Shown here: positions 3,128 to 63,261 of the stretch, in pieces | Layout: each line of letters begins with the position of its first letter | How positions within the stretch are numbered: the stretch's first letter is position 1 | DNA from: a virus | Length of the DNA stretch: 64,000 nucleotides | Virus record (IMG/VR): IMGVR_UViG_3300048856_000029 | Span: 24,846 to 88,845 of that record | Strand: one strand, 5' to 3' | Notes under the pieces: model-generated | Database searches by the model: none | Told to the model about the DNA's origin: nothing | What the model saw: only the letters and a program-made list of their open reading frames with translations | Translations under genes and position numbers: made by a program

Positions 3128-4249
3128 GTGTCAGCCGAGATCTTCCAGGAGATCAAGGAGAACCTCGATCTGGAGTTCTTCTTCGACCGCGAGAGCCTCG
3201 CCTTCAAGATGGGGCGCGGCGCTTCAGGTATGCAGATCAACGCCAAGGACTGCCCCGAATGTGGTGACGGTCGCTGGCGCGTCTATCTCAATGCCGACTC
3301 CGGTCTTGGCAATTGCTTCGTCTGCAACGCACCCTTCAACAAGCTCACCTTCATCAAGAAGACCTATGGGCACGAGAGCTGGAAGGATACGATCAAAGTC
3401 TGTCAGGAGGTCATGCGTGACCAGGGCTGGCGTCCGAAGCGCATCGCAACCGTCGCGGTCGATCCCGGCGAGGTGAGACTGCCACATTCGATCGAGCTGC
3501 CCACGCCTGAAGGTGAGAACCTGCAGTATCTCGAAACGCGCGGCGTCACTGGCGAATATGCCCAGTATTTCCGCTTTCGCTGGTGCGAGTTCGGATTCTG
3601 GCAGTTCACCGACGACGATGGCACCAAGAAGATCCAGAAGTTCGACAATCGGGTGATCATCCCGGTCTACGACCTCGACGGCACGTTGAAGACCTTCCAG
3701 GGGCGCGACCTGGCGCCGCCCTTGACCAAGGTGCAGAAGGAGCTCGGTTTCTTCGAGCGACAGAAATACCTCTTCCCGAAGGGTTTGCCTGGCACCGGCC
3801 GCTATCTCTACAACGGCCAGAACGTCATCAGGACGGATGAGATCGCGATGGGTGAGGGGGCTTTCGACGTTGCGGCCATCAAGATCGCCTTCGACGAGGA
3901 CGTCAACCTGCGCCGCGTCGTGCCCGTCGGCTCATTCGGCAAGCACCTGTCCTACGGATCACCGACCGGTGACGATCAGATAGGCCGGCTGCTGATCCTC
4001 AAGCGACAGGGCGTCAAGAAGCTGACGATCATGTGGGATGGCGAGGAGAAGGCATTGATCGCTGCCCTCGACGCAGCCAAGCGCGCGACATCGATCGGGC
4101 TCAAGGCCTACATTGCGCTGCTCCCGCCTGGCAAAGACCCGAACGAGGTGCCGGGCGAAGTCGTGCGCGACGCCTACTACAAGGCGACCCTCTGGACGCC
4201 GGCGATCGACGTTAAATGGAGATTGCGCAATCCCTACGCGGTGAAGTGA
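3128..4249 (+). CDS. DNA primase (Zn finger + Toprim)
   Basis: GTG at 3128 just after the helicase stop; CPEC...CFVC zinc finger, NRVIIPVYD, GEGAFD, MWDGE and KDPNE Toprim motifs. Confidence 0.9.
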   Translation: MSAEIFQEIKENLDLEFFFDRESLAFKMGRGASGMQINAKDCPECGDGRWRVYLNADSGLGNCFVCNAPFNKLTFIKKTYGHESWKDTIKVCQEVMRDQGWRPKRIATVAVDPGEVRLPHSIELPTPEGENLQYLETRGVTGEYAQYFRFRWCEFGFWQFTDDDGTKKIQKFDNRVIIPVYDLDGTLKTFQGRDLAPPLTKVQKELGFFERQKYLFPKGLPGTGRYLYNGQNVIRTDEIAMGEGAFDVAAIKIAFDEDVNLRRVVPVGSFGKHLSYGSPTGDDQIGRLLILKRQGVKKLTIMWDGEEKALIAALDAAKRATSIGLKAYIALLPPGKDPNEVPGEVVRDAYYKATLWTPAIDVKWRLRNPYAVK

Positions 4250-7504: not shown

Positions 7505-8014
7505 ATGGGTATCGCTGTTTCGCGAGCAGGCATCGCCGTGCTCATAAGTTTGCTGGCTCAGCCAGCGTCGGCCGATTTTTGGAAAGACATCAATCCGCTC
7601 AGACCTATAACGCCGAACTGGGGACCACTCATCCCCAGGCCTAAGACTCCGGGCGAGGTTCTTCCTCCATGTTGGGGGAGCCCGCAGACCTGTCGCCCTG
7701 ACCACCCTTCGATGAGAGGAGATCAGCCTCGGTATCAACCGTATCAACAGCCGGTCGTTCGTACTTCAGCGAACGCGGTGTGTGTTTGTCTCGAGCGCGA
7801 TGGGCGCTTGGTCGCATGGTTCAACTATCGCCCCTCTGGATATGGCTCGGCGCCAAGACTCCATGTCTCGGCGCAAGGGTGCGATGGGTTCATTCAATGC
7901 AATTACCAATACTACACCAGGTTTAACTCAAGCATCCGAACGATCGGGTGGAGCTATCGTCAAAACACTCTCAACGGTCACACCATCTATCTGTTGACGG
8001 GACTTAAAGAGTAG
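7505..8014 (+). CDS. Putative exported accessory protein (moron)
   Basis: AGGGAGGA RBS, hydrophobic signal peptide ending PASA, Pro-rich then Cys-containing domain, lower GC. Confidence 0.6.
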   Translation: MGIAVSRAGIAVLISLLAQPASADFWKDINPLRPITPNWGPLIPRPKTPGEVLPPCWGSPQTCRPDHPSMRGDQPRYQPYQQPVVRTSANAVCVCLERDGRLVAWFNYRPSGYGSAPRLHVSAQGCDGFIQCNYQYYTRFNSSIRTIGWSYRQNTLNGHTIYLLTGLKE

Positions 8015-8021
8015 CGGGACC

Positions 8022-9131
8022 TCATCGACTTCGCCGCGCGATTTCATCAGTCAGATTGACCTTGCCTTCGCGGACAAGCCTGATCATCGCACGGTAATAT
8101 CCGCCCACATTCTTGATGGGATCCGCGCCAGGCGCCGGGGTTAGCTGCAGTTGCACCACATAGACGAGGACAGCCGCGGCCAGCAGCGGGCCAACCGCGC
8201 CGCGGGCCTCCTCCCAAGCCGACGGGCTGACGCCGAAGCCGCCCCGCATTCGCTCCACATTACCCACAAACTCCCGGTCGTTCCGCGCCGGTCCCACAAA
8301 CTCCATCGCATCCGGGCAGGATCTCGCCAAATCGCCGGCGTTCAAACCCGGGGCAGGCCGTTCCCGCCCCTCCATAACTCCTAAGCCGTTGTTACAAGAC
8401 TCATCAGGGGCATATTTGTTGTTGTCTTTGTGCCGGCAAGAATTGCCGCCACAGGCGGTATAATACAGTGCTTCGGCCTCTTCCCTGACTGCCTGCCACT
8501 CCTGTCGGAACGGATCGGCCAGTCCCGCGGTCGATCGCCGCGGTGTGACTCTGGCGAGCTCGATGGCGCGCTTCGTCAGTTCAGCAATATCTTGCTCGGG
8601 AAAATGCTCGGCGATAGCCCTGAGCGCTTCCTGGGCTGCCCTGCGATGAATCGTAAGCTCATCGAAGGCCAGCGATCGTTCGCGCTTCAAATCGTCCAGC
8701 GCCTGCTTGCGGGCGCGCAGCTCCTGGACCTGATTGAGAAGAGGGGAGAGGTCAAAGCCATAGGCCCGGATGATCTGCCCGTTTGCCGCTCTCTGCGCGA
8801 ACCTTTTGCCGTTCGGTGAATCCTTAGAGCAGACGACGCCCAAGGAAATCAGTTGACGAAGGCAGAAACGTAGAGTCCGGTCAGGAATTCCCGTGCTCTG
8901 CGAAAGGAATTCGTTCGAGGGCCAGACAAGGATTCGACCCTCGATCGGCTGATTTCCATAGACCCCAACAAGGTGATCAAGGATTTGTCGGCATTTGGAC
9001 GTCAAATTCAAGACCTCGCCGGCGAGCCGGGCAGCCTCGAATAGTTCTTTCTTTTCAGTGGTTAGCGGTTCGCTGTTATCCGGGACAATAGGATTCAGCG
9101 CACGCCAGCCGGTAGACTGCGCGTTCCTCAT
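8022..9131 (-). CDS. repC: RepC-type plasmid replication initiator (repABC/repC family)
   Basis: VWPSN, DSPNGKRF, AYGFDLSPLL N-terminal motifs and IKNVGGYYRAM C-terminal motif; ATG 9131 (alternative GTG 9170). Confidence 0.93.
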   Translation of the reverse strand: MRNAQSTGWRALNPIVPDNSEPLTTEKKELFEAARLAGEVLNLTSKCRQILDHLVGVYGNQPIEGRILVWPSNEFLSQSTGIPDRTLRFCLRQLISLGVVCSKDSPNGKRFAQRAANGQIIRAYGFDLSPLLNQVQELRARKQALDDLKRERSLAFDELTIHRRAAQEALRAIAEHFPEQDIAELTKRAIELARVTPRRSTAGLADPFRQEWQAVREEAEALYYTACGGNSCRHKDNNKYAPDESCNNGLGVMEGRERPAPGLNAGDLARSCPDAMEFVGPARNDREFVGNVERMRGGFGVSPSAWEEARGAVGPLLAAAVLVYVVQLQLTPAPGADPIKNVGGYYRAMIRLVREGKVNLTDEIARRSR

Positions 9132-19662: not shown

Positions 19663-19682
19663 GATAAGTAAATACTGACTGC
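19663..19682 (+). promoter_or_regulatory. Repeated operator copy after a GCTATTAA box
   Basis: GATAAGTAAATACTGACTGC. Confidence 0.8.
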
Positions 19683-21020: not shown

Positions 21021-21184
21021 GAAAACCGTCGGCGTTCGTCGCGCCGACCGGCAGCCGGATTTGAGTCCGGCCGATATGCGAGACGGTTTTGATCCTTTCC
21101 CGTCTCGCCCTGATCGGAGCCCTGGCTCTCTTCCTCGTTCAAACAGGGCTCCGATCCCCTCCCCGAGCATGAAGGAATACCCCA

Positions 21185-31742: not shown

Positions 31743-34031
31743 ATGAACATGCACACGCCTGCTCGGGATTACTTTCCGGGCATGGGTCAGGCTGTCGCCG
31801 ACCGAACCATCAACCGCAAGATCACCGATCCTGACGGCACCACCCGCGTCGAGACTTGGGCCGAAGTTGCCCACCGCGTAGCGCTCGGTAACTCGCTGCT
31901 CGATCCTCGCGGCGCAAACGCTGCACAGAGCGAATACATCACGCTGAACCACCATCTGCGCCAGGCCTCGCTGCTCATGTCCGGCCGGCACCTGCAGCAT
32001 GGTGACGAGACGCAGCCGGAGCGTAACCAGGAAGTCTTCACAAACTGCTCAACGGCCGCGGCCACCTTCCTGCTGTTCTATCTGCTCCTCAACGGCTCCG
32101 GTGTCGGCCGTGCCTACGACGATGCGATGATCAAGGCCGACTACAACGAGATGCCGATCGTCGTGCCGGTGATCGATTGGAGCCACAAGGATGTTCAGCG
32201 CGGCATCATCTCTGGCTACAAGACGCGCCGCGACGCCGAGCACCTCTATGCCGGCCGCAAGATAACCATCTTCGAAGTGCCAGACAGCCGCGAAGGTTGG
32301 GCAAAGGCCGTCGAAATCATCGAGCGCATGGCGTTTCAGGGTCGTCGTGACGAGGTGCTGATCCTCGACTTCACCGGCGTTCGCGAAAACGGCGCACCCA
32401 TCAAGGGAATGCAGAACCGCCCGGCTTCTGGCCCTGGGCCGCTGATGTCCGCGATCGCCAATATCGCCCTGCTGCGCGACGCCGGCATGGAGCCCTGGCG
32501 CGCTGCCATGTATGCCGACCACTATGCCGCTGAATGCGTGCTCGTCGGTGGCGCTCGGCGTGCTGCCCGCATGGCGACCAAGCACTGGAAGGACAAGTCG
32601 ATCTTCGGCTTCATCCAGTTGAAGCGCGGTGGCTTCCTCTGGTCGTCCAACAACTCCGTCACCATCGACGATGAGTTCCGCGCCGCTTGCCGCAAGGTCG
32701 CCAACCAACTCGGCGGTGGAGACTTCGAAAACTCCGTGCCGCGCCTGGTCTTCCTGCGCGCCATCAATGCCATCACGGAGACCGAGGCGCACGCCTGGAA
32801 GGTTCTGGTTGAGCTTGCCAAAGCTGCCTATTTCGATGGCACCGGCGAGCCTGGCATCATCAATCAGGACAAGCTGACACAGCGCGACGAAGGCATCGAG
32901 TCCTATGTCGATGGCCTCTATGCAGAGTCCAGCCGCTTCAAGGTCGATCCGGAGACGGTGCCGCTGATGGCTGCCCTCGCCCGCGTGGTCATGGGCGTCA
33001 AATACACCATGATCACCAACCCTTGCGGCGAAATCTGCCTGCTGATGCTTGGCGCCTACTGCGTCATAGCAGACGTGGTGCCGTTCCATGCCCAGGACGA
33101 CGACGATGCCGAAAGCGCCTTCCGTGCCGCTGTCCGGGCGCTGATGCGCACGAACACCATGGACTGCCTCTATCGCCGCGAGGTCAATCGCACCAACCGG
33201 ATCGGCGTCGGCATCACCGGCTTCCATGAATGGGCTTACAGCCGTTTCAAGTTCACCTGGCACGATATCGTCAATGAGACGAAGTCGAAGGAAATGTGGA
33301 TGACGCTGTCGCGCTTCAAGCGGGCCATCGTCGACGAGGCTGAGAAGTTCGCAAAGCTGCTCGGCGTCGTTGTTCCTCACACGAACACGACCTTCAAGCC
33401 TGCCGGCACGACCTCGAAGCTGTTTGGTCTTACCGAAGGCGCTCACCTGCCCTCGATGCGCGAGTTCATTCGTTGGGTGCAGTTCCGCAACGACGATCCG
33501 CTCGTGGCTGACTATGAGGCTATGGGCTATCCGGTGAAGCGCCTGAAGACCTACGAAGGAACGACGATCGTCGGCTTCCCGACCAAGCCGAAGATCTGCG
33601 AGTTGGACGGTGGCGAATGGGTTGTGACCGCTGCCGAGGCGACGCCCGAGGAGCAGTATGAGTTCCTGCGCCTGCTTGAGAAGTATTGGATCCACGGCGT
33701 CGATGAAAACGGCGAGTCCCTTGCCGAAGAAACCGGCAACCAGGTCAGCTATACGCTCAAGTATGATCCGAAGAAGGTCGACTTCGAGTCCTTCCTGAAC
33801 ACGCTGATCGACGGCCAGTTCTCGATCCGCTGCTGCTCGGTGATGCCGCAGACCGACACGTCGGCCTACGAGTATCAGCCGGAACAGCCGGTGACGAAGG
33901 CGCAGTTCGAAATGATTGCCTCAGCGATCTCCAACGACAACGTGAAGGAAGACATCGGCTTCGAACACGTTGACTGCGGTGCCGGCGCCTGCCCGATCGA
34001 CTTCTCGGAAGACCAGAAGGAGGCGGCGTGA
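31743..34031 (+). CDS. nrdJ: Class II (adenosylcobalamin-dependent) ribonucleotide reductase
   Basis: TNPCGEI, FKPAGTTSKL, C-terminal CGAGAC; no small-subunit gene nearby. Confidence 0.88.
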   Translation: MNMHTPARDYFPGMGQAVADRTINRKITDPDGTTRVETWAEVAHRVALGNSLLDPRGANAAQSEYITLNHHLRQASLLMSGRHLQHGDETQPERNQEVFTNCSTAAATFLLFYLLLNGSGVGRAYDDAMIKADYNEMPIVVPVIDWSHKDVQRGIISGYKTRRDAEHLYAGRKITIFEVPDSREGWAKAVEIIERMAFQGRRDEVLILDFTGVRENGAPIKGMQNRPASGPGPLMSAIANIALLRDAGMEPWRAAMYADHYAAECVLVGGARRAARMATKHWKDKSIFGFIQLKRGGFLWSSNNSVTIDDEFRAACRKVANQLGGGDFENSVPRLVFLRAINAITETEAHAWKVLVELAKAAYFDGTGEPGIINQDKLTQRDEGIESYVDGLYAESSRFKVDPETVPLMAALARVVMGVKYTMITNPCGEICLLMLGAYCVIADVVPFHAQDDDDAESAFRAAVRALMRTNTMDCLYRREVNRTNRIGVGITGFHEWAYSRFKFTWHDIVNETKSKEMWMTLSRFKRAIVDEAEKFAKLLGVVVPHTNTTFKPAGTTSKLFGLTEGAHLPSMREFIRWVQFRNDDPLVADYEAMGYPVKRLKTYEGTTIVGFPTKPKICELDGGEWVVTAAEATPEEQYEFLRLLEKYWIHGVDENGESLAEETGNQVSYTLKYDPKKVDFESFLNTLIDGQFSIRCCSVMPQTDTSAYEYQPEQPVTKAQFEMIASAISNDNVKEDIGFEHVDCGAGACPIDFSEDQKEAA

Positions 34032-34286: not shown

Positions 34287-34844
34287 TTCTCTTTGCATTA
34301 ATTGGGAAAGCTTTTCAAATGGAAGAGTCGCAACCTTCGTGATGAGTGCAACCGCGATCATTATATGAAGGCGAATGCCGATCCATCCCGCGTGACGCGG
34401 CCGATCCAGAGAGAGAGCCTCGTTATACTCATCCCTTGCATCAAGTATCATCTGCTCCACCACCCGCTCGAAAACCTTCTTCGGAAGGATAAATCGGAGT
34501 GCGCCGGAAACCACATGACCAGGAGCTTTGTAGAGACGAGGTTTCGCGATTTTCCTCGTGTTTGCTACCGTTGCAATATGCGGAAATGGAGTAAAAATTT
34601 TTAAAGTGCCGTTCTTCTGAGACTCTTCCAAGTGTTCCACAACAGCGCGGTAACGCTCCGAAGCGGTCGCGAAATGCTTGGTTTGTATGTACACGGTTTC
34701 CGAAAAATCGAGGGTCAACTGCGTGAAGTCCGGTTTCTCAGCCCTCTGCCGCACCGTGCTGCTAATCCGCATACTGCCAGACGTGTACAAAACATCGTCC
34801 TTGAAGCATTTGATTATCGGAAGCGGCTTTTGATCGTCACTCAT
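34284..34844 (-). CDS. Hypothetical protein with C-terminal hydrophobic segment, coupled to the PadR gene
   Basis: Low-GC ORF overlapping the PadR stop by 4 nt. Confidence 0.65.
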   Translation of the reverse strand: MSDDQKPLPIIKCFKDDVLYTSGSMRISSTVRQRAEKPDFTQLTLDFSETVYIQTKHFATASERYRAVVEHLEESQKNGTLKIFTPFPHIATVANTRKIAKPRLYKAPGHVVSGALRFILPKKVFERVVEQMILDARDEYNEALSLDRPRHAGWIGIRLHIMIAVALITKVATLPFEKLSQLMQRE

Positions 34845-35143
34845 GCCATTGCTCCCGAATAATCACTCATGACATTCCTTGCAGCGAGAGTGGCGCGGTA
34901 GGCCCGCTGACCTTCGCCCGTAATGAAGTATCGGCGCCTTGCCATACCAGATTGGCCGGGAACCTGCTCGGCTTCAGAACGAAGCCACTTCTTATCCTCC
35001 ATACGAGACAGGTGGACATAGATCGTCGCTTTTTTTAACTGTGATGAAGCCTTCACCATTTCAAGACCGTACATTCCCTGCTTGCCTACAAGCAGATTGA
35101 GCACCTCAAACTGAATGTCAGACACGTTGATGTTGAAGCTCAT
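34841..35143 (-). CDS. PadR-family winged-helix regulator
   Basis: MYGLEMVK...TIYVHLSRMEDKKWL...RRRYFITGEG. Confidence 0.85.
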   Translation of the reverse strand: MSFNINVSDIQFEVLNLLVGKQGMYGLEMVKASSQLKKATIYVHLSRMEDKKWLRSEAEQVPGQSGMARRRYFITGEGQRAYRATLAARNVMSDYSGAMA

Positions 35144-35239
35144 AATACGCACCGTCGTAGTTTGGACACGAGTGACTCTTGCACCCTGTAAGAGTGAGTC
35201 TTACACCTAGTTAGATACGTCCGCAACTCAAAATTCCTG

Positions 35240-35283
35240 TTGCAGCCCATGTGAGCTTCGTCTATTAAGTAAATACTGACTGA
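35240..35283 (+). promoter_or_regulatory. Promoter TTGCAG-N17-TATTAA with overlapping operator
   Basis: TTGCAG 35240, TATTAA 35263, operator ATTAAGTAAATACTGACTGA 35264-35283. Confidence 0.75.
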
Positions 35284-35370
35284 TAGCGAGTAGTCATCGG
35301 TTCAATTAGATACGACGAGGTGCGAATGAAGCTCTGAGCAATAGGTGGCCGTTCGAACGGTATTGACTAA

Positions 35371-35479
35371 CCAAGACGTGCCGGGAGCGTCAGAAAACAA
35401 GCCCGGCGCTTATGTGAGGCGCTGCGGTCTTGGAGATAAGTGAGGTCTCCTTCGATCGATAGGCCAGCGCCTCTCATAA
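35371..35479 (+). ncRNA. Candidate structured RNA with possible pseudoknot
   Basis: 35371-77 pairs 35427-33; 35380-85 pairs 35402-07; 35411-24 pairs 35465-78 (one mismatch); no credible ORF. Confidence 0.4.
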
Positions 35480-35481
35480 AC

Positions 35482-35568
35482 GATCTGGTAGCGAAGTGGT
35501 TGAACGCGCAGGACTGCAAATCCTGTTCCGTAAGGGCGTCGCTGGTTCGAATCCAGCCCAGATCTCCA
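35482..35568 (+). tRNA. tRNA-Cys(GCA), 87 nt, long variable arm, encoded CCA
   Basis: Acceptor GATCTGG/CCAGATC, U73, anticodon arm CAGGA-CTGCAAA-TCCTG, T arm GCTGG-TTCGAAT-CCAGC, 15-nt variable region. Confidence 0.92.
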
Positions 35569-35570
35569 TT

Positions 35571-35650
35571 CAGCGGCAGCTTCTCCCCTGGGCTGTCCGT
35601 CTCCGACCAGGAGGTTCTCTCCTCCTCCCAAGCGCCTCCTGGTCGGCCCA
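35571..35650 (+). ncRNA. Cuckoo/ar14-like two-hairpin sRNA candidate
   Basis: Hairpin with TTCTCCCCT loop, then 12-bp stem CCGACCAGGAGG/CCTCCTGGTCGG with a CTCCTCCTCCC loop. Confidence 0.55.
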
Positions 35651-35675
35651 CTTTCAACAATGAGGACAAAGACAA

Positions 35676-35951
35676 ATGGGTCAGGTTCTTCCATTCCCCA
35701 CGCGCGAACGAGCGCAACCGGCGCCACAGCAGCCGACGAAGATCACCGAAGCCGAATGCCGGCTGCTCGACAAGATCAAGCTGGTGACGGATCACTCGCT
35801 CGACGTGGTCAATTCCGGCCAGGCGCTCATGCGCGACTTCCTCGCCGGCAAGAAGATGGTCGGCGCCAAGTTCGAATACCTTGGCAAGAATTATCAGGTG
35901 CTGGTTTCGCTGGAAGAGCAGACCGATGCTCCACCGCCCCGTTACGCCTGA
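35676..35951 (+). CDS. Hypothetical protein
   Basis: 91 aa, host-like codons. Confidence 0.65.
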   Translation: MGQVLPFPTRERAQPAPQQPTKITEAECRLLDKIKLVTDHSLDVVNSGQALMRDFLAGKKMVGAKFEYLGKNYQVLVSLEEQTDAPPPRYA

Positions 35952-36296: not shown

Positions 36297-37253
36297 GTGT
36301 CGAAAGACCAGATGTTCGCCAAGGTCGTGCTTGCATCCAAGCCAACCAACGGCGCGCCACCCATCATCACAATGCACTGGCACTACCCTCGCCCCATTCA
36401 CGGCGAGGTCATGACGCATCGCGTCTTCAGCCGGAACGCTAGATCCTCGCGCGCCGTGCCTGTCGCGACGATGCTGAAGGAGATCCGTGAGGCTCCGTTC
36501 GTTCCGTGGCACTGGGGAAAGAACCAGAAGGGGATGCAGGCCGGCGAAGAGTGCAAAGGGCTCGTTGATATGAGCGGCACCCTGTTTGCTGGCATCGGCA
36601 ATCCGCTCGTGCGCGAAAGCGCCTGGAAGCTGGCCGCAGAGTCCGCCGCTGGTATGGCCGAAGCCTTCTCCGACGCCGGCTACCATAAGCAGATCGCCAA
36701 CCGTCTGATTGAGCCGTTCTCCTGGATCGACACGCTGATCACCTCGACGTCCTGGGCGAACTTCCTGCATCTGCGCGATCACAAGGACGCTGAGCCGCAC
36801 TTCCAGGATCTCGCCGCGATGGTTCGGGAGGCGATCGACAGTGCAGAGTTCGAACCTCTCCGCCCCGGACAGTGGCATCTCCCGTATGTCCCGCATTGGG
36901 AGCGCGCAGATATCGTTAAGGCAATTACCGGCAAAAAATGGGACGAAGATTGGGATCAACGTGACTACCTGGCGATGGCGAAGATCTCCGTCGCCCGTTG
37001 CGCCCGCATCTCCTACAAGCCTTTCGACGGAGACGGCTCCATTGAGAAGGAGCTGGAGCGCTATGAGACGCTCGTCGGCTCGTCACCGCTGCACGCCTCA
37101 CCGGCCGAGCACCAGGCCACACCTGATTGGACTGAGGTCGATTATCACGGTGAGCCGCTGTGGGCCAACCAGAACCTGTCCGGCAATCTCGGCCCCGGCT
37201 GGATCCAGTATCGCAAGACACTGCCCGGCGAATACATCGCCGACGCGGCATGA
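36297..37253 (+). CDS. thyX: Flavin-dependent thymidylate synthase (ThyX/Thy1 phage type)
   Basis: THRVFSRNARSSRAVP, HKQIANRLIEPF, NFLHLR, HASPAEHQA. Confidence 0.88.
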   Translation: MSKDQMFAKVVLASKPTNGAPPIITMHWHYPRPIHGEVMTHRVFSRNARSSRAVPVATMLKEIREAPFVPWHWGKNQKGMQAGEECKGLVDMSGTLFAGIGNPLVRESAWKLAAESAAGMAEAFSDAGYHKQIANRLIEPFSWIDTLITSTSWANFLHLRDHKDAEPHFQDLAAMVREAIDSAEFEPLRPGQWHLPYVPHWERADIVKAITGKKWDEDWDQRDYLAMAKISVARCARISYKPFDGDGSIEKELERYETLVGSSPLHASPAEHQATPDWTEVDYHGEPLWANQNLSGNLGPGWIQYRKTLPGEYIADAA

Positions 37254-39781: not shown

Positions 39782-42172
39782 ATGCAGGTTTCACAGTTGG
39801 TCGAGCTCGATACCCACGCCGTTATCGGCGGTGGCAAGGCGCGCTCATTCTCGATGTCGGACTCGGCTGAGTTCTTCACCGTCCTGTCCGATACCCTTTA
39901 CCGCGACAAGAAGCGCGCAGTCGTCCGCGAAGTCATCTGCAATGGCTGGGACGCGCATATCATGAATGATTGCACGGACACCTACCTCGAGGTGACGCTG
40001 ACCGAGGACGAGATCATCTTCAAGGATTTCGGGCCAGGCATCGCCGACGAAAAGATCGTGCCTATCTACTGCGTCTATGGCGCGTCGACCAAGGTCCGCG
40101 ACGCGAACCAGACAGGCGGCTTTGGCCTCGGGTCCAAGTCACCCTTTGCCTATTCCGACCATTTCACCGTCACGAGCTGCTTTGAAGGCATGAAGCGGGT
40201 TTACGCGATCAGCCGAGGCGGCACTGAAACGGAAGGTCGGCCTGAGATCCGCGAGATGGTCAGCGTGCCGACGACCGAGACCGGCATCACCGTGACGATC
40301 CCGCTGCGCGACAAGAGCGACCTGCCGGAGTTCCAGCAGAACATCTTCTCCGTCGCCTATCAGGGTGGCATGAAGGTGAAGCTCAACGGCAGGCAGCTCG
40401 CAACGCTGAACTACGAGCCTGCGCGTAAGCAGGGCTTCTGTGCCATCGAGAACGTGCGCGCTGAACTGCGCGAGTCATATGCCTATCTGCTTTACGGCAC
40501 CGTTCTCTATCCAATCACCACAACGGATGCCAGAATCTCCGAGGCGGCCTTGAGGGCCGGTAATCTCGTCGGCAACGGCTACAGACTTGTGCTGATCGCG
40601 CCGCCCAACTCGGTCGGCATCACGCCCAGCCGCGAGTCCCTTTCCTATTCCGAGTTAACGACGCAGACCATCCTTCGCCTCCTGAAACGTGCGACGAAGT
40701 CGCTCGAGGCGAGCATCCCGAGCGCCGGCAAGAAGATCATCACTCGCCTCGCGGCAACGATGGAGCTCGACAAGGCCGGCGACGGCACGATGCAGAACAT
40801 GTCCATGCGCCAGGCTCACCAGATGCCGCAGACCCTGGTCACGCCGGAGCAGATCGCGGCATACACTATCCGGTGCGATTTCGATCGCATCCCGCGTGCC
40901 ACGCGCCGCAAGTGGATCTACGACGGTCTGGCGAAGAAGTATCCGCACATGCGCGCAACGCTTCGCAAGGCTCGTGGCGCGGGCGTGGACTTCTCCGTGA
41001 TGACGAGACAACACGCTCACACCCGGTTCGTCCGGCTGGCCGTCAAAACCGGCCTGCTCAATGGCGCGTTGATCTACGACGACAACCACAGCTACCACGG
41101 CACGTCCCGGCTCGACAGCATCCGCAGGGAGTTGGGTGACGGTGCCATCGGAAAGAACATCTACGTGGCGCCGAACCGTCGCGAGCTGACGTCGATGATC
41201 GTCGGCAGCAAGAGCGACCCAACCTCACGCAGCCGCAATCTCTATCTTGGCCTGGTCGTTGGACAGAAGCCGTCGCGCGATCTGCTGGACCGGCTGCGCA
41301 CGGAAGCGAAGACTTTTGGTTTCACCCTTGACGAATACGACTGGGAGTTCGTGAAGCCGAAGGTGGTTCGAAAGCAGAAGGCGAGCGAGAAGTTCCATGC
41401 CTTCGTCGACTACCGCGACAAAGATAAGACGATGGTCGAGCCGAGCCTCGAGGCGCCTAAGTTCTTCATGCGCGGCTACACTTACGATGGCGAGCTGCGC
41501 CTGGGTATCGATGATCACGGCGCTCGCCATATCCTCGCCGAGATGTATCCCGAGCTCGCCGTCATTACGACGAAGGAGCAGGAGCAGAAGCTTCGCGCGG
41601 CCGGCGTTGTGCATGTGATCGAGGACGTTGAGAAGCGTCTGGCAAAGATGGTCAAGTGCCGTGAGGTGCAATACGGGCTGATGGTGCAGGACCGGAATTT
41701 CTGCAACAAGACCGGGCTCACCTACTACTACGAAAGCTACAAGCTTTGTGAAACGGCACTCGCACTCGCCCGGCTGCACATGGACATTGCCCGGCTGATC
41801 TTCCCGGATCGCGCAAAGCCGGGCGAGAAGTGGAAGGAAGCCAGGCAGCTTGTTCGCGTTATGCGAACCTTCCCGCACAGCAGCCAGAACTATGCCGACA
41901 GCAAGGAAGCACCCGCATCCGTCCTGTCGAAGCTCGAAAATGCGGCTCGTGAGACGTTCAAGGATATGATCGTCACCAAGAACGATGCGGCGAAGCGGCT
42001 CGGCTATCTGTCGGTGCTGATCGGATCCGAATGGATCACCGATCGCAGCAGCCTCGACGAGCCGGCCCGTGACAAACTTATCGGCGTAATCCGCTATCTG
42101 CAGCGCTTTGCCGATAAGTCAAAACTGACTGTCAAGCACACCAACACCATCGCCCAGAAGGAGGCAGCATGA
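39782..42172 (+). CDS. rIIA-like protein (GHKL ATPase)
   Basis: LSDTLYRDKKRAVVREVICNGWDAH, DFGPG, STK, GGFGLGSKSPFAYSD. Confidence 0.88.
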   Translation: MQVSQLVELDTHAVIGGGKARSFSMSDSAEFFTVLSDTLYRDKKRAVVREVICNGWDAHIMNDCTDTYLEVTLTEDEIIFKDFGPGIADEKIVPIYCVYGASTKVRDANQTGGFGLGSKSPFAYSDHFTVTSCFEGMKRVYAISRGGTETEGRPEIREMVSVPTTETGITVTIPLRDKSDLPEFQQNIFSVAYQGGMKVKLNGRQLATLNYEPARKQGFCAIENVRAELRESYAYLLYGTVLYPITTTDARISEAALRAGNLVGNGYRLVLIAPPNSVGITPSRESLSYSELTTQTILRLLKRATKSLEASIPSAGKKIITRLAATMELDKAGDGTMQNMSMRQAHQMPQTLVTPEQIAAYTIRCDFDRIPRATRRKWIYDGLAKKYPHMRATLRKARGAGVDFSVMTRQHAHTRFVRLAVKTGLLNGALIYDDNHSYHGTSRLDSIRRELGDGAIGKNIYVAPNRRELTSMIVGSKSDPTSRSRNLYLGLVVGQKPSRDLLDRLRTEAKTFGFTLDEYDWEFVKPKVVRKQKASEKFHAFVDYRDKDKTMVEPSLEAPKFFMRGYTYDGELRLGIDDHGARHILAEMYPELAVITTKEQEQKLRAAGVVHVIEDVEKRLAKMVKCREVQYGLMVQDRNFCNKTGLTYYYESYKLCETALALARLHMDIARLIFPDRAKPGEKWKEARQLVRVMRTFPHSSQNYADSKEAPASVLSKLENAARETFKDMIVTKNDAAKRLGYLSVLIGSEWITDRSSLDEPARDKLIGVIRYLQRFADKSKLTVKHTNTIAQKEAA
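42113..42132 (+). promoter_or_regulatory. Operator copy embedded in the rIIA 3' end
   Basis: GATAAGTCAAAACTGACTGT. Confidence 0.7.
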
Positions 42173-59263: not shown

Positions 59264-59508
59264 CCAAGGCGCGGCGCTACAAGGCTCCAAACGGAATAGA
59301 GATCTCCGGCACGTCCGAAATTCTGCCGGCAACTGCCTTGATTGACAGCATCAACGACGACGGCACGCCGAACTATGCCGGCGAAAGTAAGCTCTGGTGG
59401 GACGACCAGAAAACCAAGACGCGCGACGGCAAGATCCTTTTCGTCGACGAAAGCGGTGAGGAGTGGACCTTCGACCAACTCACGCCCATTCAGGAGGAAG
59501 GCGAATGA
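59260..59508 (+). CDS. Hypothetical protein
   Basis: ATGA-coupled. Confidence 0.7.
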   Translation: MTKARRYKAPNGIEISGTSEILPATALIDSINDDGTPNYAGESKLWWDDQKTKTRDGKILFVDESGEEWTFDQLTPIQEEGE

Positions 59509-59900
59509 GCAGCCTCGACAGCGCACGCAAACGGATGCGCCCAATCAGCAACATCCCGGCATCCCGATCCGGCATCTCGGATACCCAGAAGCTGATCCGC
59601 ATAGTTCACGCGGAGATGGGAATCATCGCCACGACGCCACCCCATGCCATGAAATATCCGAAGCACCAGGACAAGGAGAAAGGCTCGGTCTGGCGCGGGC
59701 TCTGCAACCGCACCGCTTGCGACGGCTTCCCGGCCCAGCACTATAACCTTGGCACCTATGGCTACTATTGCGCGCCGTGTGCCCACGCCATCAACCGCGG
59801 GCACCGACAGCAACCGCTTTGCATCGAGGTCGACCACAGTCTGTCGCTCGAGGAGATGGACCGTCTCTACCGCGACCATCACGCCGAGGTGTTCAAATGA
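59505..59900 (+). CDS. Hypothetical protein with Cys/His cluster
   Basis: GLCNRTAC...YYCAPCAHAIN. Confidence 0.7.
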   Translation: MSSLDSARKRMRPISNIPASRSGISDTQKLIRIVHAEMGIIATTPPHAMKYPKHQDKEKGSVWRGLCNRTACDGFPAQHYNLGTYGYYCAPCAHAINRGHRQQPLCIEVDHSLSLEEMDRLYRDHHAEVFK

Positions 59901-62623: not shown

Positions 62624-63136
62624 TTATCGGACGTTTTGAAAGGGCGCGGTCAGAGCTTCTATCGACGCTCTCGCCCGACCCAGGCACGCCTCAAGTCCCT
62701 CAACCACACTCGCCTGCGGGCGTCGTTCGCCGAAGTCCAAAGCGGCATTGCTTCCGGGCGGCGTGATCACCGCATAGTGGTCATTCGGGCTGTAGATCGA
62801 GATCCGGTAGCCTTTAAACTGCTCGACATAACTGGGCACTGGCGCGATCTCCTCGTCTCGCCGACGCAGCATAGCATCCCAATACTCCTCGACAACTCTG
62901 GCTGCGTCAGACGCCGTGGGCATCCAACCATTGTTCGGCATGATCCAGGTGCGACACCCCGTCGGATACTGCCCGGCCCAGCGCCACTGCCCTGCCTTCA
63001 AGGTTTGATCGTCAAGGTAGATCCGGCCAATATTCACCTCGCCGTCGAAACCGACATAGTCTTCCGGCACGTTGCCGTGCCTGTCACGGTCGTCGGGCCA
63101 GGTGCGGGACCAGCGGTATTTCTTCTGCCACACCAT
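62624..63136 (-). CDS. Hypothetical protein of the rhizobial prophage-associated type
   Basis: YRWSRTW...DYVGFDGEVNIGRIY...WRWAG. Confidence 0.65.
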   Translation of the reverse strand: MVWQKKYRWSRTWPDDRDRHGNVPEDYVGFDGEVNIGRIYLDDQTLKAGQWRWAGQYPTGCRTWIMPNNGWMPTASDAARVVEEYWDAMLRRRDEEIAPVPSYVEQFKGYRISIYSPNDHYAVITPPGSNAALDFGERRPQASVVEGLEACLGRARASIEALTAPFQNVR

Positions 63137-63261
63137 CGAACGTTAGGGTTCTCTTAACTACGAATTGCTAATGTGATCACGGCAGCAATCTCCTCCCCTC
63201 GTATGCTGCTGTCGTTTTAGGAACTTGGCCCAGGCTCTCGCCCTGGGCCTTTTTCCTTTGG

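Follow-up and report, generated by a model that had tools for sequence, protein, structure and literature searches.

Two hairpins behind a phage tRNA-Cys gene as a possible anti-Shine-Dalgarno module of the cuckoo type

The transcription unit around the tRNA-Cys gene

The window, by which we mean the whole 64,000-nt stretch analysed, comprises bases 24846-88845 of a 115.7-kb virus record, which is 99% complete and encodes a class II ribonucleotide reductase, ThyX, an rIIA-like protein, a gp32-like SSB and a 5'-3' exonuclease. The public sequences closest to it are the 115-122 kb Rhizobium phages RHph_N1_10, Y2_11, RHEph10, X66, B1VFA and V1VFA-S, together with plasmids of similar size in Shinella and Pararhizobium. 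The phage gene set of a near-complete virus record, and relatives that are Rhizobium phages and Rhizobiaceae plasmids, agree with the first-pass annotation in placing the element described here on a phage. The features of the region are as follows.

31743-34031: class II ribonucleotide reductase gene
34841-35152, minus strand: PadR-like gene, divergent
35266-35282, plus strand: phage operator/promoter motif TAAGTAAATACTGACTG, heading the transcription unit and overlapping a sigma-70-like -10 box
35285-35480, plus strand: conserved leader RNA that holds a mini-ORF of 3-4 codons, a small stem-loop and a long, variable hairpin
35482-35568, plus strand: tRNA-Cys(GCA) with a long variable arm and encoded CCA (ARAGORN; Rfam tRNA 63.7 bits)
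35573-35600, plus strand: hairpin 1, 28 nt, stem of 7-10 bp with one bulge, loop UUCUCCCCUGG
35603-35646, plus strand: hairpin 2, 44 nt, perfect 12-bp stem CCGACCAGGAGG/CCUCCUGGUCGG, 20-nt loop UUCUCUCCUCCUCCCAAGCG
35647-35675, plus strand: A/U-rich single-stranded spacer CCCACUUUCAACAAUGAGGACAAAGACAA, with a Shine-Dalgarno (SD) sequence GAGGA at 35662-35666 and no U-tract
35676-35951, plus strand: first small ORF of the unit (ORF1), 91 aa, no family match
36297-37253: ThyX gene, near a thymidylate-kinase-like gene
39782-42172: rIIA-like gene

The intergenic stretch 35153-35675 holds, in this order, the operator/promoter word, the leader RNA, the tRNA-Cys gene, hairpins 1 and 2 and the 29-nt spacer, after which the 91-aa ORF begins. 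Read by eye, the promoter at the operator is TTGCAG-N17-TATTAA, and the 17-nt word TAAGTAAATACTGACTG is present in the window in 18 copies with up to three mismatches, against 0.04 expected. These copies, mostly on the plus strand and ahead of gene blocks (e.g. at 19665, 35266, 13248 and 57447), constitute the phage's own promoter/operator regulon, and the motif is conserved in N1_10-type relatives. The hairpins lie within the unit headed by the copy at 35266-35282, a position that supports the operator control proposed for them earlier. The base of the long leader stem covaries among the relatives L002 and L005-L008. A search of genome contigs with the leader word gave no matches. A mini-ORF with its own SD was noted in the leaders of the window (35312-35480), L002, L005-L008 and L124, encoding MKL, MKSL, MKLI, MTKF, MKK or MKRL followed by a stop codon, and the leader may also form an H-type pseudoknot (GACGA / GCCGGG / UCGUC / A-rich / CCCGGC).

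The tRNA was the only match in the whole window at the Rfam gathering thresholds, and it has a U discriminator. Its long-arm type is also found in B1VFA and the Shinella plasmid, and the tRNA-Cys is one of the cargoes of a variable slot that separates the leader from the first ORF. Relatives with the shared promoter and leader hold other cargo: in L007 and L008 this is a tRNA-Cys of the ordinary type, in others the slot holds different structured segments, and some relatives have no tRNA-Cys there. A movable, conserved element of about 65 nt (GGAUGACAGUUAGAGCRUAAUCGCUGCUGAAAG...) was also observed in this slot in L005 (at about 7520-7590, in minus orientation), L007 and L008; it follows the leader in L005 and L008, lies within the variable stem of the leader in L007, and has no Rfam match. 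The 91-aa ORF has as its homologue in N1_10-type phages the ORF that comes first after the leader; queries of viral contigs with ORF1 and with the PadR-like protein returned no relatives. A consensus scan of 35569-35675 detected neither promoter-like nor terminator-like sites from the tRNA up to the ORF, which puts the hairpins on one transcript with the two. As there is no terminator, a discrete RNA would need a putative cleavage.

Structure of the hairpin pair and its fit to the cuckoo family

Both hairpins of the first-pass annotation and its perfect 12-bp stem were recovered, with coordinates about 3 nt tighter at each end, and the pair does lie directly 3' of the tRNA, which ends (including CCA) at 35568, with hairpin 1 starting at 35573. 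In hairpin 1, CGGCAGC (35574-80) pairs with GCUG-U-CCG (35592-99), leaving one bulged U, and the loop UUCUCCCCUGG has 11 nt with two U.G pairs open and 7 nt if these are closed, as in the MFE structure. After a 2-nt linker follows hairpin 2, in which, once a U.G pair and two inner pairs have formed within the loop, a 12-nt apex CUCCUCCUCCCA is left (35619-35630); the stem arms themselves hold AGGAGG and CCUCCU. The MFE structure of 35569-35650 (82 nt) consists of exactly these two hairpins, with an energy of -38.5 kcal/mol and a z-score of -4.17, and none of 200 shuffles folded as well. Perfect hairpins of at least 9 bp number just 26 on the plus strand of the 115.7-kb genome, and only two hairpins on this strand combine at least 12 perfect bp with a pyrimidine loop of about 20 nt. 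The hairpin pair is more than chance folding.

With regard to the loop motif, the exact word CCTCCTCCC has three copies in the window, and the copy in hairpin 2 is alone in lying within a significant hairpin loop, there being no significant hairpin at the copies at 8207 and 15104. The former includes an exact CCUCCUCCCAAGC (8207-8219, plus strand) which is antisense to a 382-aa minus-strand ORF, and with a z-score of -0.43 it is probably there by chance. By a rough post hoc estimate, the motif would fall by chance in one of the two such loops about 6 times in 10,000; near-matches to the motif are not enriched in the window (17 versus 18.6 expected).

The cuckoo family includes ar14 (RF02344, with NfeR1 of Sinorhizobium) and RSs0680a-d of Rhodobacter (CcsR1-4, RF02791), which like the window pair consist of adjacent hairpins with variable stems and an anti-SD loop CCUCCUCCC. 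In the Rhizobiaceae there are 4-8 cuckoo RNAs per genome, and 14 copies adjoin a tRNA-Leu gene; CcsR1-4 are cut out of a co-transcript (PMC4615179). In contrast to cuckoo RNAs, the window pair is borne by a phage-plasmid and wedged between a tRNA and an ORF, without a terminator hairpin or a promoter of its own, and whereas the Rhizobiaceae copies mostly have three or four units, the pair has one canonical and one decayed unit. The published matcher asks for at least two adjacent hairpins with a linker of no more than 10 unpaired bases and an unconstrained MFE structure of like shape, each unit being a 24-50 nt hairpin whose loop has 9-27 nt and whose helix has at least 6 bp, with interruptions not exceeding 6 nt (PMC4615179). 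It further asks for CCUCCUCCC or an accepted variant in every loop, and candidates with two hairpins are described as its least significant class, with many false positives (PMC4615179).

The window pair agrees with the rule on two adjacent hairpins, as its MFE structure has two hairpins with a 2-nt linker and an energy ratio of 1.0. Hairpin 2 fits every rule for a unit (44 nt, a loop of 20 or 12 nt, 12 bp, exact motif), and its apex is the ar14 consensus loop aCUCCUCCUCCCa; by the published rules it is a textbook cuckoo unit. Hairpin 1 has a suitable length and stem (28 nt, 7-10 bp), with a loop of sufficient size only in its open, 11-nt form, and its motif has decayed to CUUCUCCCC, which is identical to CCUCCUCCC at six of nine positions without gaps, or one substitution plus one deletion away. 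The curated models scored the pair below their thresholds: 16.9 bits for ar14 against a gathering cut-off of 58.8 (E 0.51 for all families over 401 nt), and 11.6 bits for CcsR1 against 65.3, covering only model positions 46-76. Taken as a single family over the genome, ar14 gave an E-value of 0.035, a figure to be read with the weak ar14 'rings' that also appear in unrelated control genomes. In the ar14 alignment the first two hairpins of the model are covered, with the loop of hairpin 2 on that of the second model hairpin, and the third hairpin/terminator region is deleted. In a search of the window with a single-unit covariance model (R1), built from 13 tight-loop IMG/VR units and of too little information to be decisive, hairpin 2, which has a wider loop, took second rank with 14.7 bits (E 0.39). 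Another ar14 'ring' at 59407-59520 on the minus strand, the third, was dropped, as it has a z-score of +0.9 and no significant structure.

The first-pass annotation had called the element ar14-like, and had named the lack of a covariance-model hit as an outcome that would tell against it; formally this is the outcome at the ar14 and CcsR1 cut-offs. What stands of the likeness is the fit of hairpin 2 to the unit rules and its consensus loop; what does not are the curated scores, the motif of hairpin 1, and a terminator and own promoter. The hairpin pair is a decayed, terminator-less copy of the cuckoo design, and its membership of the family is not established.

Two other systems resemble the pair in position. 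The 3'ETS-leuZ RNA of E. coli (from glyW-cysT-leuZ) is a tRNA-trailer RNA which acts as a sponge for RyhB and RybB and ends at the operon terminator. It is released by tRNA processing from the transcript 3' of a tRNA, and the window pair is alike in position, being on the same transcript as the tRNA and 5 nt past its CCA; unlike the window pair, 3'ETS-leuZ has no anti-SD loops. Phage T4 species 1 and 2 (rnaC/rnaD) are small stable RNAs of no known function that are co-transcribed and co-processed with the phage tRNAs. They too are phage small RNAs in a tRNA cluster, but have no relation to the window pair in sequence or motif.

Relatives, analogous modules and other hairpins

None of the relatives examined carries the hairpin pair, and there is consequently no covariation for it. 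A BLAST search of phages and plasmids with the 115-nt element gave nothing, ar14 scans of nine related records gave no copy of the pair, and none of eight metagenome matches to the exact 19-nt loop word is in a hairpin. N1_10, L005-L008 and the Pararhizobium plasmid have the same leader, followed by cargo other than the pair; B1VFA and the Shinella plasmid have the long-arm tRNA-Cys, followed by a trailer unrelated to the pair; in the closest ThyX relatives both the tRNA and the hairpin module are missing; and no such module was found upstream of the ORF1 homologues in relatives. The earlier description of the element as host-like is supported in so far as related phages infect Rhizobium and related plasmids reside in other Rhizobiaceae, a family with cuckoo RNAs.

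Loops of the anti-SD type recur in this lineage and outside it, and canonical cuckoo hairpin pairs do occur inside the early operons of other phages. In L048, a 53-kb virus (98% complete), the stop codon of the SSB gene is followed by two canonical cuckoo hairpins, a UUUCAA tail, and the SD and ATG of a Vut_1-like gene, with an ar14 score of 30.5 bits (E 1.6e-5). L048 and the window share a 17-nt run which includes CCUCCUCCCAAGC, in and just past the second loop. This extended loop is common to hairpin 2, L048, L085, L063/L044/L115 and the Shinella phage-plasmid, while the N1_10 leader has the shorter CCUCCCAAGC; the variable stem of that leader encloses UCCUCCCC and UUCCUCCCAAGCG.

We also scanned IMG/VR for two CCUCCUCCC words 22-52 nt apart, which gave at least 120 viral loci (L212-L331); among the matches listed (120 loci) there are 52 instances where both words lie in the loop of their own hairpin of at least 6 bp. 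Tandem hairpins of the canonical form are frequent in viral contigs, L048, L085, L063 and L061 among them. Of 18 non-redundant pairs that were checked, eight lack any U-run of more than 4, and in these an SD and ATG follow after 12-32 nt. Flanking genes with a family match encode SSB, Ant anti-repressor, RecE-like exonuclease and phrog_26995 proteins with DDPF-type acidic tails, and several pairs are in early genes beside the first three. Some other instances resemble ordinary three-hairpin host genes and may lie in host flanks of provirus calls. The terminator-less modules (e.g. L048, L291, L248 and L260) have the same layout as the window pair, with a short A/U-rich tail and an SD and ATG 12-32 nt further on, and the UUUCAA tail behind the window pair recurs in L048 and L291. 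They differ in that the IMG/VR modules follow the stop codon of a protein gene and have two canonical loops, whereas the window pair follows a tRNA, and the stem sequences are unrelated. Adjacency to a tRNA is not general, with a tRNA near the phage cuckoo module in 1 of 44 loci. When 17 two-hairpin modules were aligned with MAFFT, no consensus structure emerged, as the stems were out of register, and therefore no two-unit covariance model was built.

Two other hairpins of the genome are relevant here. One at 63175-63216 (plus strand) has a stem of about 9-12 bp and the loop AAUCUCCUCCCCUCGUA, and is followed by an intrinsic terminator at 63229-63256 (GGCCCAGG..CCUGGGCC and U5); it sits between two minus-strand ORFs, that at 62624-63136 matching phrog_12188. 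Rfam scores of 63175-63256 are below threshold (Betaproteobacteria toxic sRNA 22.9 bits, ar14 19.0, sX13 18.4). In the Shinella phage-plasmid the homologous terminator lies where a CDS of the same strand ends, and is preceded by a hairpin whose loop CUAGCCUCCUCCCAAGCU holds CCUCCUCCCAAGC. As a candidate for a free-standing anti-SD small RNA, 63175-63256 is better than the tRNA-linked pair.

The second, at 21112-21156 (plus strand), has 13 perfect pairs and the loop GCUCUCUUCCUCGUUCAAA, and ends 28 nt before the ATG of the 5'-3' exonuclease, behind the gp32-like SSB gene. Six phages (that of the window; L125 at 681-732; L208-L211) keep a long perfect hairpin with a C/U-rich loop 25-30 nt before the exonuclease start while its stem sequence is replaced, and between N1_10 and Y2_11 there is one compensated change from U-A to C-G. 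It is followed by a C-rich tail (CCCUCCCC, CCCCUUCCCC or CCCCUCCUCCU). Retention of structure with replacement of the stem shows that such hairpins are under selection in this lineage. As C/U-rich loops are common in its intergenic hairpins, the weight of the hairpin 2 motif is tempered, and a fortuitous match becomes likelier.

Possible roles of the hairpin pair

The reading we prefer, tentatively and without calling it probable, is that 35573-35646 is a two-unit cuckoo-type anti-SD module, with one canonical and one decayed unit, which is part of an operator-controlled early transcript and pairs with ribosome-binding sites. Its host replicon would be a Rhizobiaceae phage-plasmid, and the module would occupy the variable 'RNA cargo' slot behind the tRNA-Cys. 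Transcription from the operator-bearing promoter near 35270 would run through the leader, tRNA, hairpins and ORFs, and once the tRNA is excised, the downstream RNA would begin with the hairpin pair. Cleavage within the A/U-rich UUUCAA spacer could then yield an RNA of about 80 nt, with the 12-bp stem guarding its 3' end, and the exposed loop CUCCUCCUCCCA might pair with purine-rich ribosome-binding regions and so reduce translation. The targets could be host mRNAs as well as the phage's own long GGAG-rich leaders, possibly with a weaker effect on the adjacent ORF. What the analysis shows is the structure, motif and position of the pair, the lack of a promoter or terminator from the tRNA to the ORF, and canonical modules of like form in other phages; processing, accumulation, pairing and translational effect we infer. 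A trans-regulator of the cuckoo kind is recognised by a discrete transcript which pairs with ribosome-binding regions, and by Hfq dependence.

With the CcsR units, which are cut from a co-transcript, as a precedent, we favour an anti-SD role of the exposed loop, possibly after release of the RNA. The z-score of the fold, the consensus apex, the fit to the matcher rules, the layout of L048 and the IMG/VR pairs all count for the anti-SD module, and so do a slot that holds stable RNAs (tRNA-Cys) in relatives and the second anti-SD hairpin with its terminator at 63175-63256. Against it count the sub-threshold scores, the weak R1 match, the lack of a canonical motif in hairpin 1 and the lack of covariation. 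Pairing of the loop with the ORF1 start region (-8.0 kcal/mol) is merely average, with a mean of -8.7 ± 3.7 kcal/mol over the start sites of the genome and a rank of 265 out of 466, and some GGAG-rich phage leaders pair with the loop far better, such as that of the rIIA-like gene (-20.2 kcal/mol), although these energies are not specific. We count this too for the anti-SD module. Any SD is complementary to CCUCC, so that lists of targets prove little. A specific match in cis of the loop to the ribosome-binding site of ORF1 was considered and rejected, its pairing being no better than that of the average start site.

Nearly as likely as the anti-SD module, and a minority possibility on its own account, is a role purely in cis, in which the hairpins become the 5' end of the ORF1 mRNA after tRNA excision and there is no free small RNA. 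They would guard the mRNA against 5'-end-dependent decay and/or tune ORF1 translation, by weak loop-SD pairing or by crowding of the 30S landing site. There is indeed no terminator between the hairpins and the ORF, and hairpin 2 ends 29 nt before the ATG, much as 28 nt separate the end of the 21112-21156 hairpin from the exonuclease ATG, a site where structure is kept in relatives while the stem sequence turns over; the eight IMG/VR pairs that end shortly before an SD and ATG, none of them with a long U-run, fit as well. The average complementarity of the loop to the ORF1 SD speaks against it, however, as do the ORF1 homologues that lack such a module upstream, and a stabiliser would not require the exact cuckoo loop. 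We consider it rather improbable that the likeness to cuckoo units is fortuitous, the pair then being GC-rich spacer hairpins of an ordinary kind (structures of a tRNA trailer, or for pausing or insulation) within a slot that is hypervariable and prone to recombination, with loops that mirror the composition of the lineage. The unenriched near-matches, the absence of the pair from all relatives examined and the sub-threshold covariance-model scores fit such an origin, as do other intergenic hairpins, here and in relatives, with C/U-rich loops that lack the exact motif. This would leave to coincidence an apex that carries the exact 11-nt CUCCUCCUCCC, in a genome with only two such hairpins, the extended CCCAAGC loop and UUUCAA tail in common with canonical phage modules, and a second, decayed unit at the right spacing.

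An RNA that binds protein or polymerase, as a put-like antitermination element or as the site of a phage RNA-binding protein, is very unlikely. The put element of HK022 is likewise a two-hairpin element downstream of an early promoter, and the window pair has its hairpins 2 nt apart, about 300 nt downstream of such a promoter; yet the Rfam scan gave no sequence or model match to elements of this kind, the hairpins are not conserved in relatives that share the promoter and leader, and the anti-SD loop is left unexplained. That the tRNA gene has its intrinsic terminator in hairpin 2 is hardly credible, in spite of the strong GC stem close behind the tRNA, and we rejected it: CCCACUUUCAAC, without a U-tract, comes after the stem, the loop measures 20 nt, the terminator scan of 35569-35675 was empty, and an SD and ORF come directly after.

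In rhizobia, Brucella and Rhodobacter, cuckoo RNAs form an abundant family of small RNAs. The cuckoo paper makes no mention of phages (PMC4615179), and our literature search found no report of phage-borne cuckoo units, including the terminator-less IMG/VR modules. It is conceivable, although we regard it as doubtful, that phages and phage-plasmids of the alphaproteobacteria widely carry copies of host cuckoo units in early operons, where a stop codon or tRNA precedes them and a ribosome-binding site comes next, as borrowed translational control or for host shut-off, in which case the window pair would be a decayed but active member and 63175-63256 a second, free-standing one. If so, phages would have an RNA-only means of damping host translation or of timing their own, and these modules would be a natural test bed for target choice by anti-SD loops. 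The window pair itself is of modest value, being one decayed instance without comparative support.

Finally, a hairpin of 15-17 bp with an inner GGCC[CCUCCUCCC]GGCC hairpin was observed in N1_10, RHEph10 and an IMG/VR relative (L002 at about 3222-3295, L131 at 2078-2145, L008 at about 7545-7610), and in L005. Its site is the ATGA where the first and second small ORFs behind the leader meet, within an annotated CDS of 65 aa, and it has a z-score of -3.97 and one compensated change.
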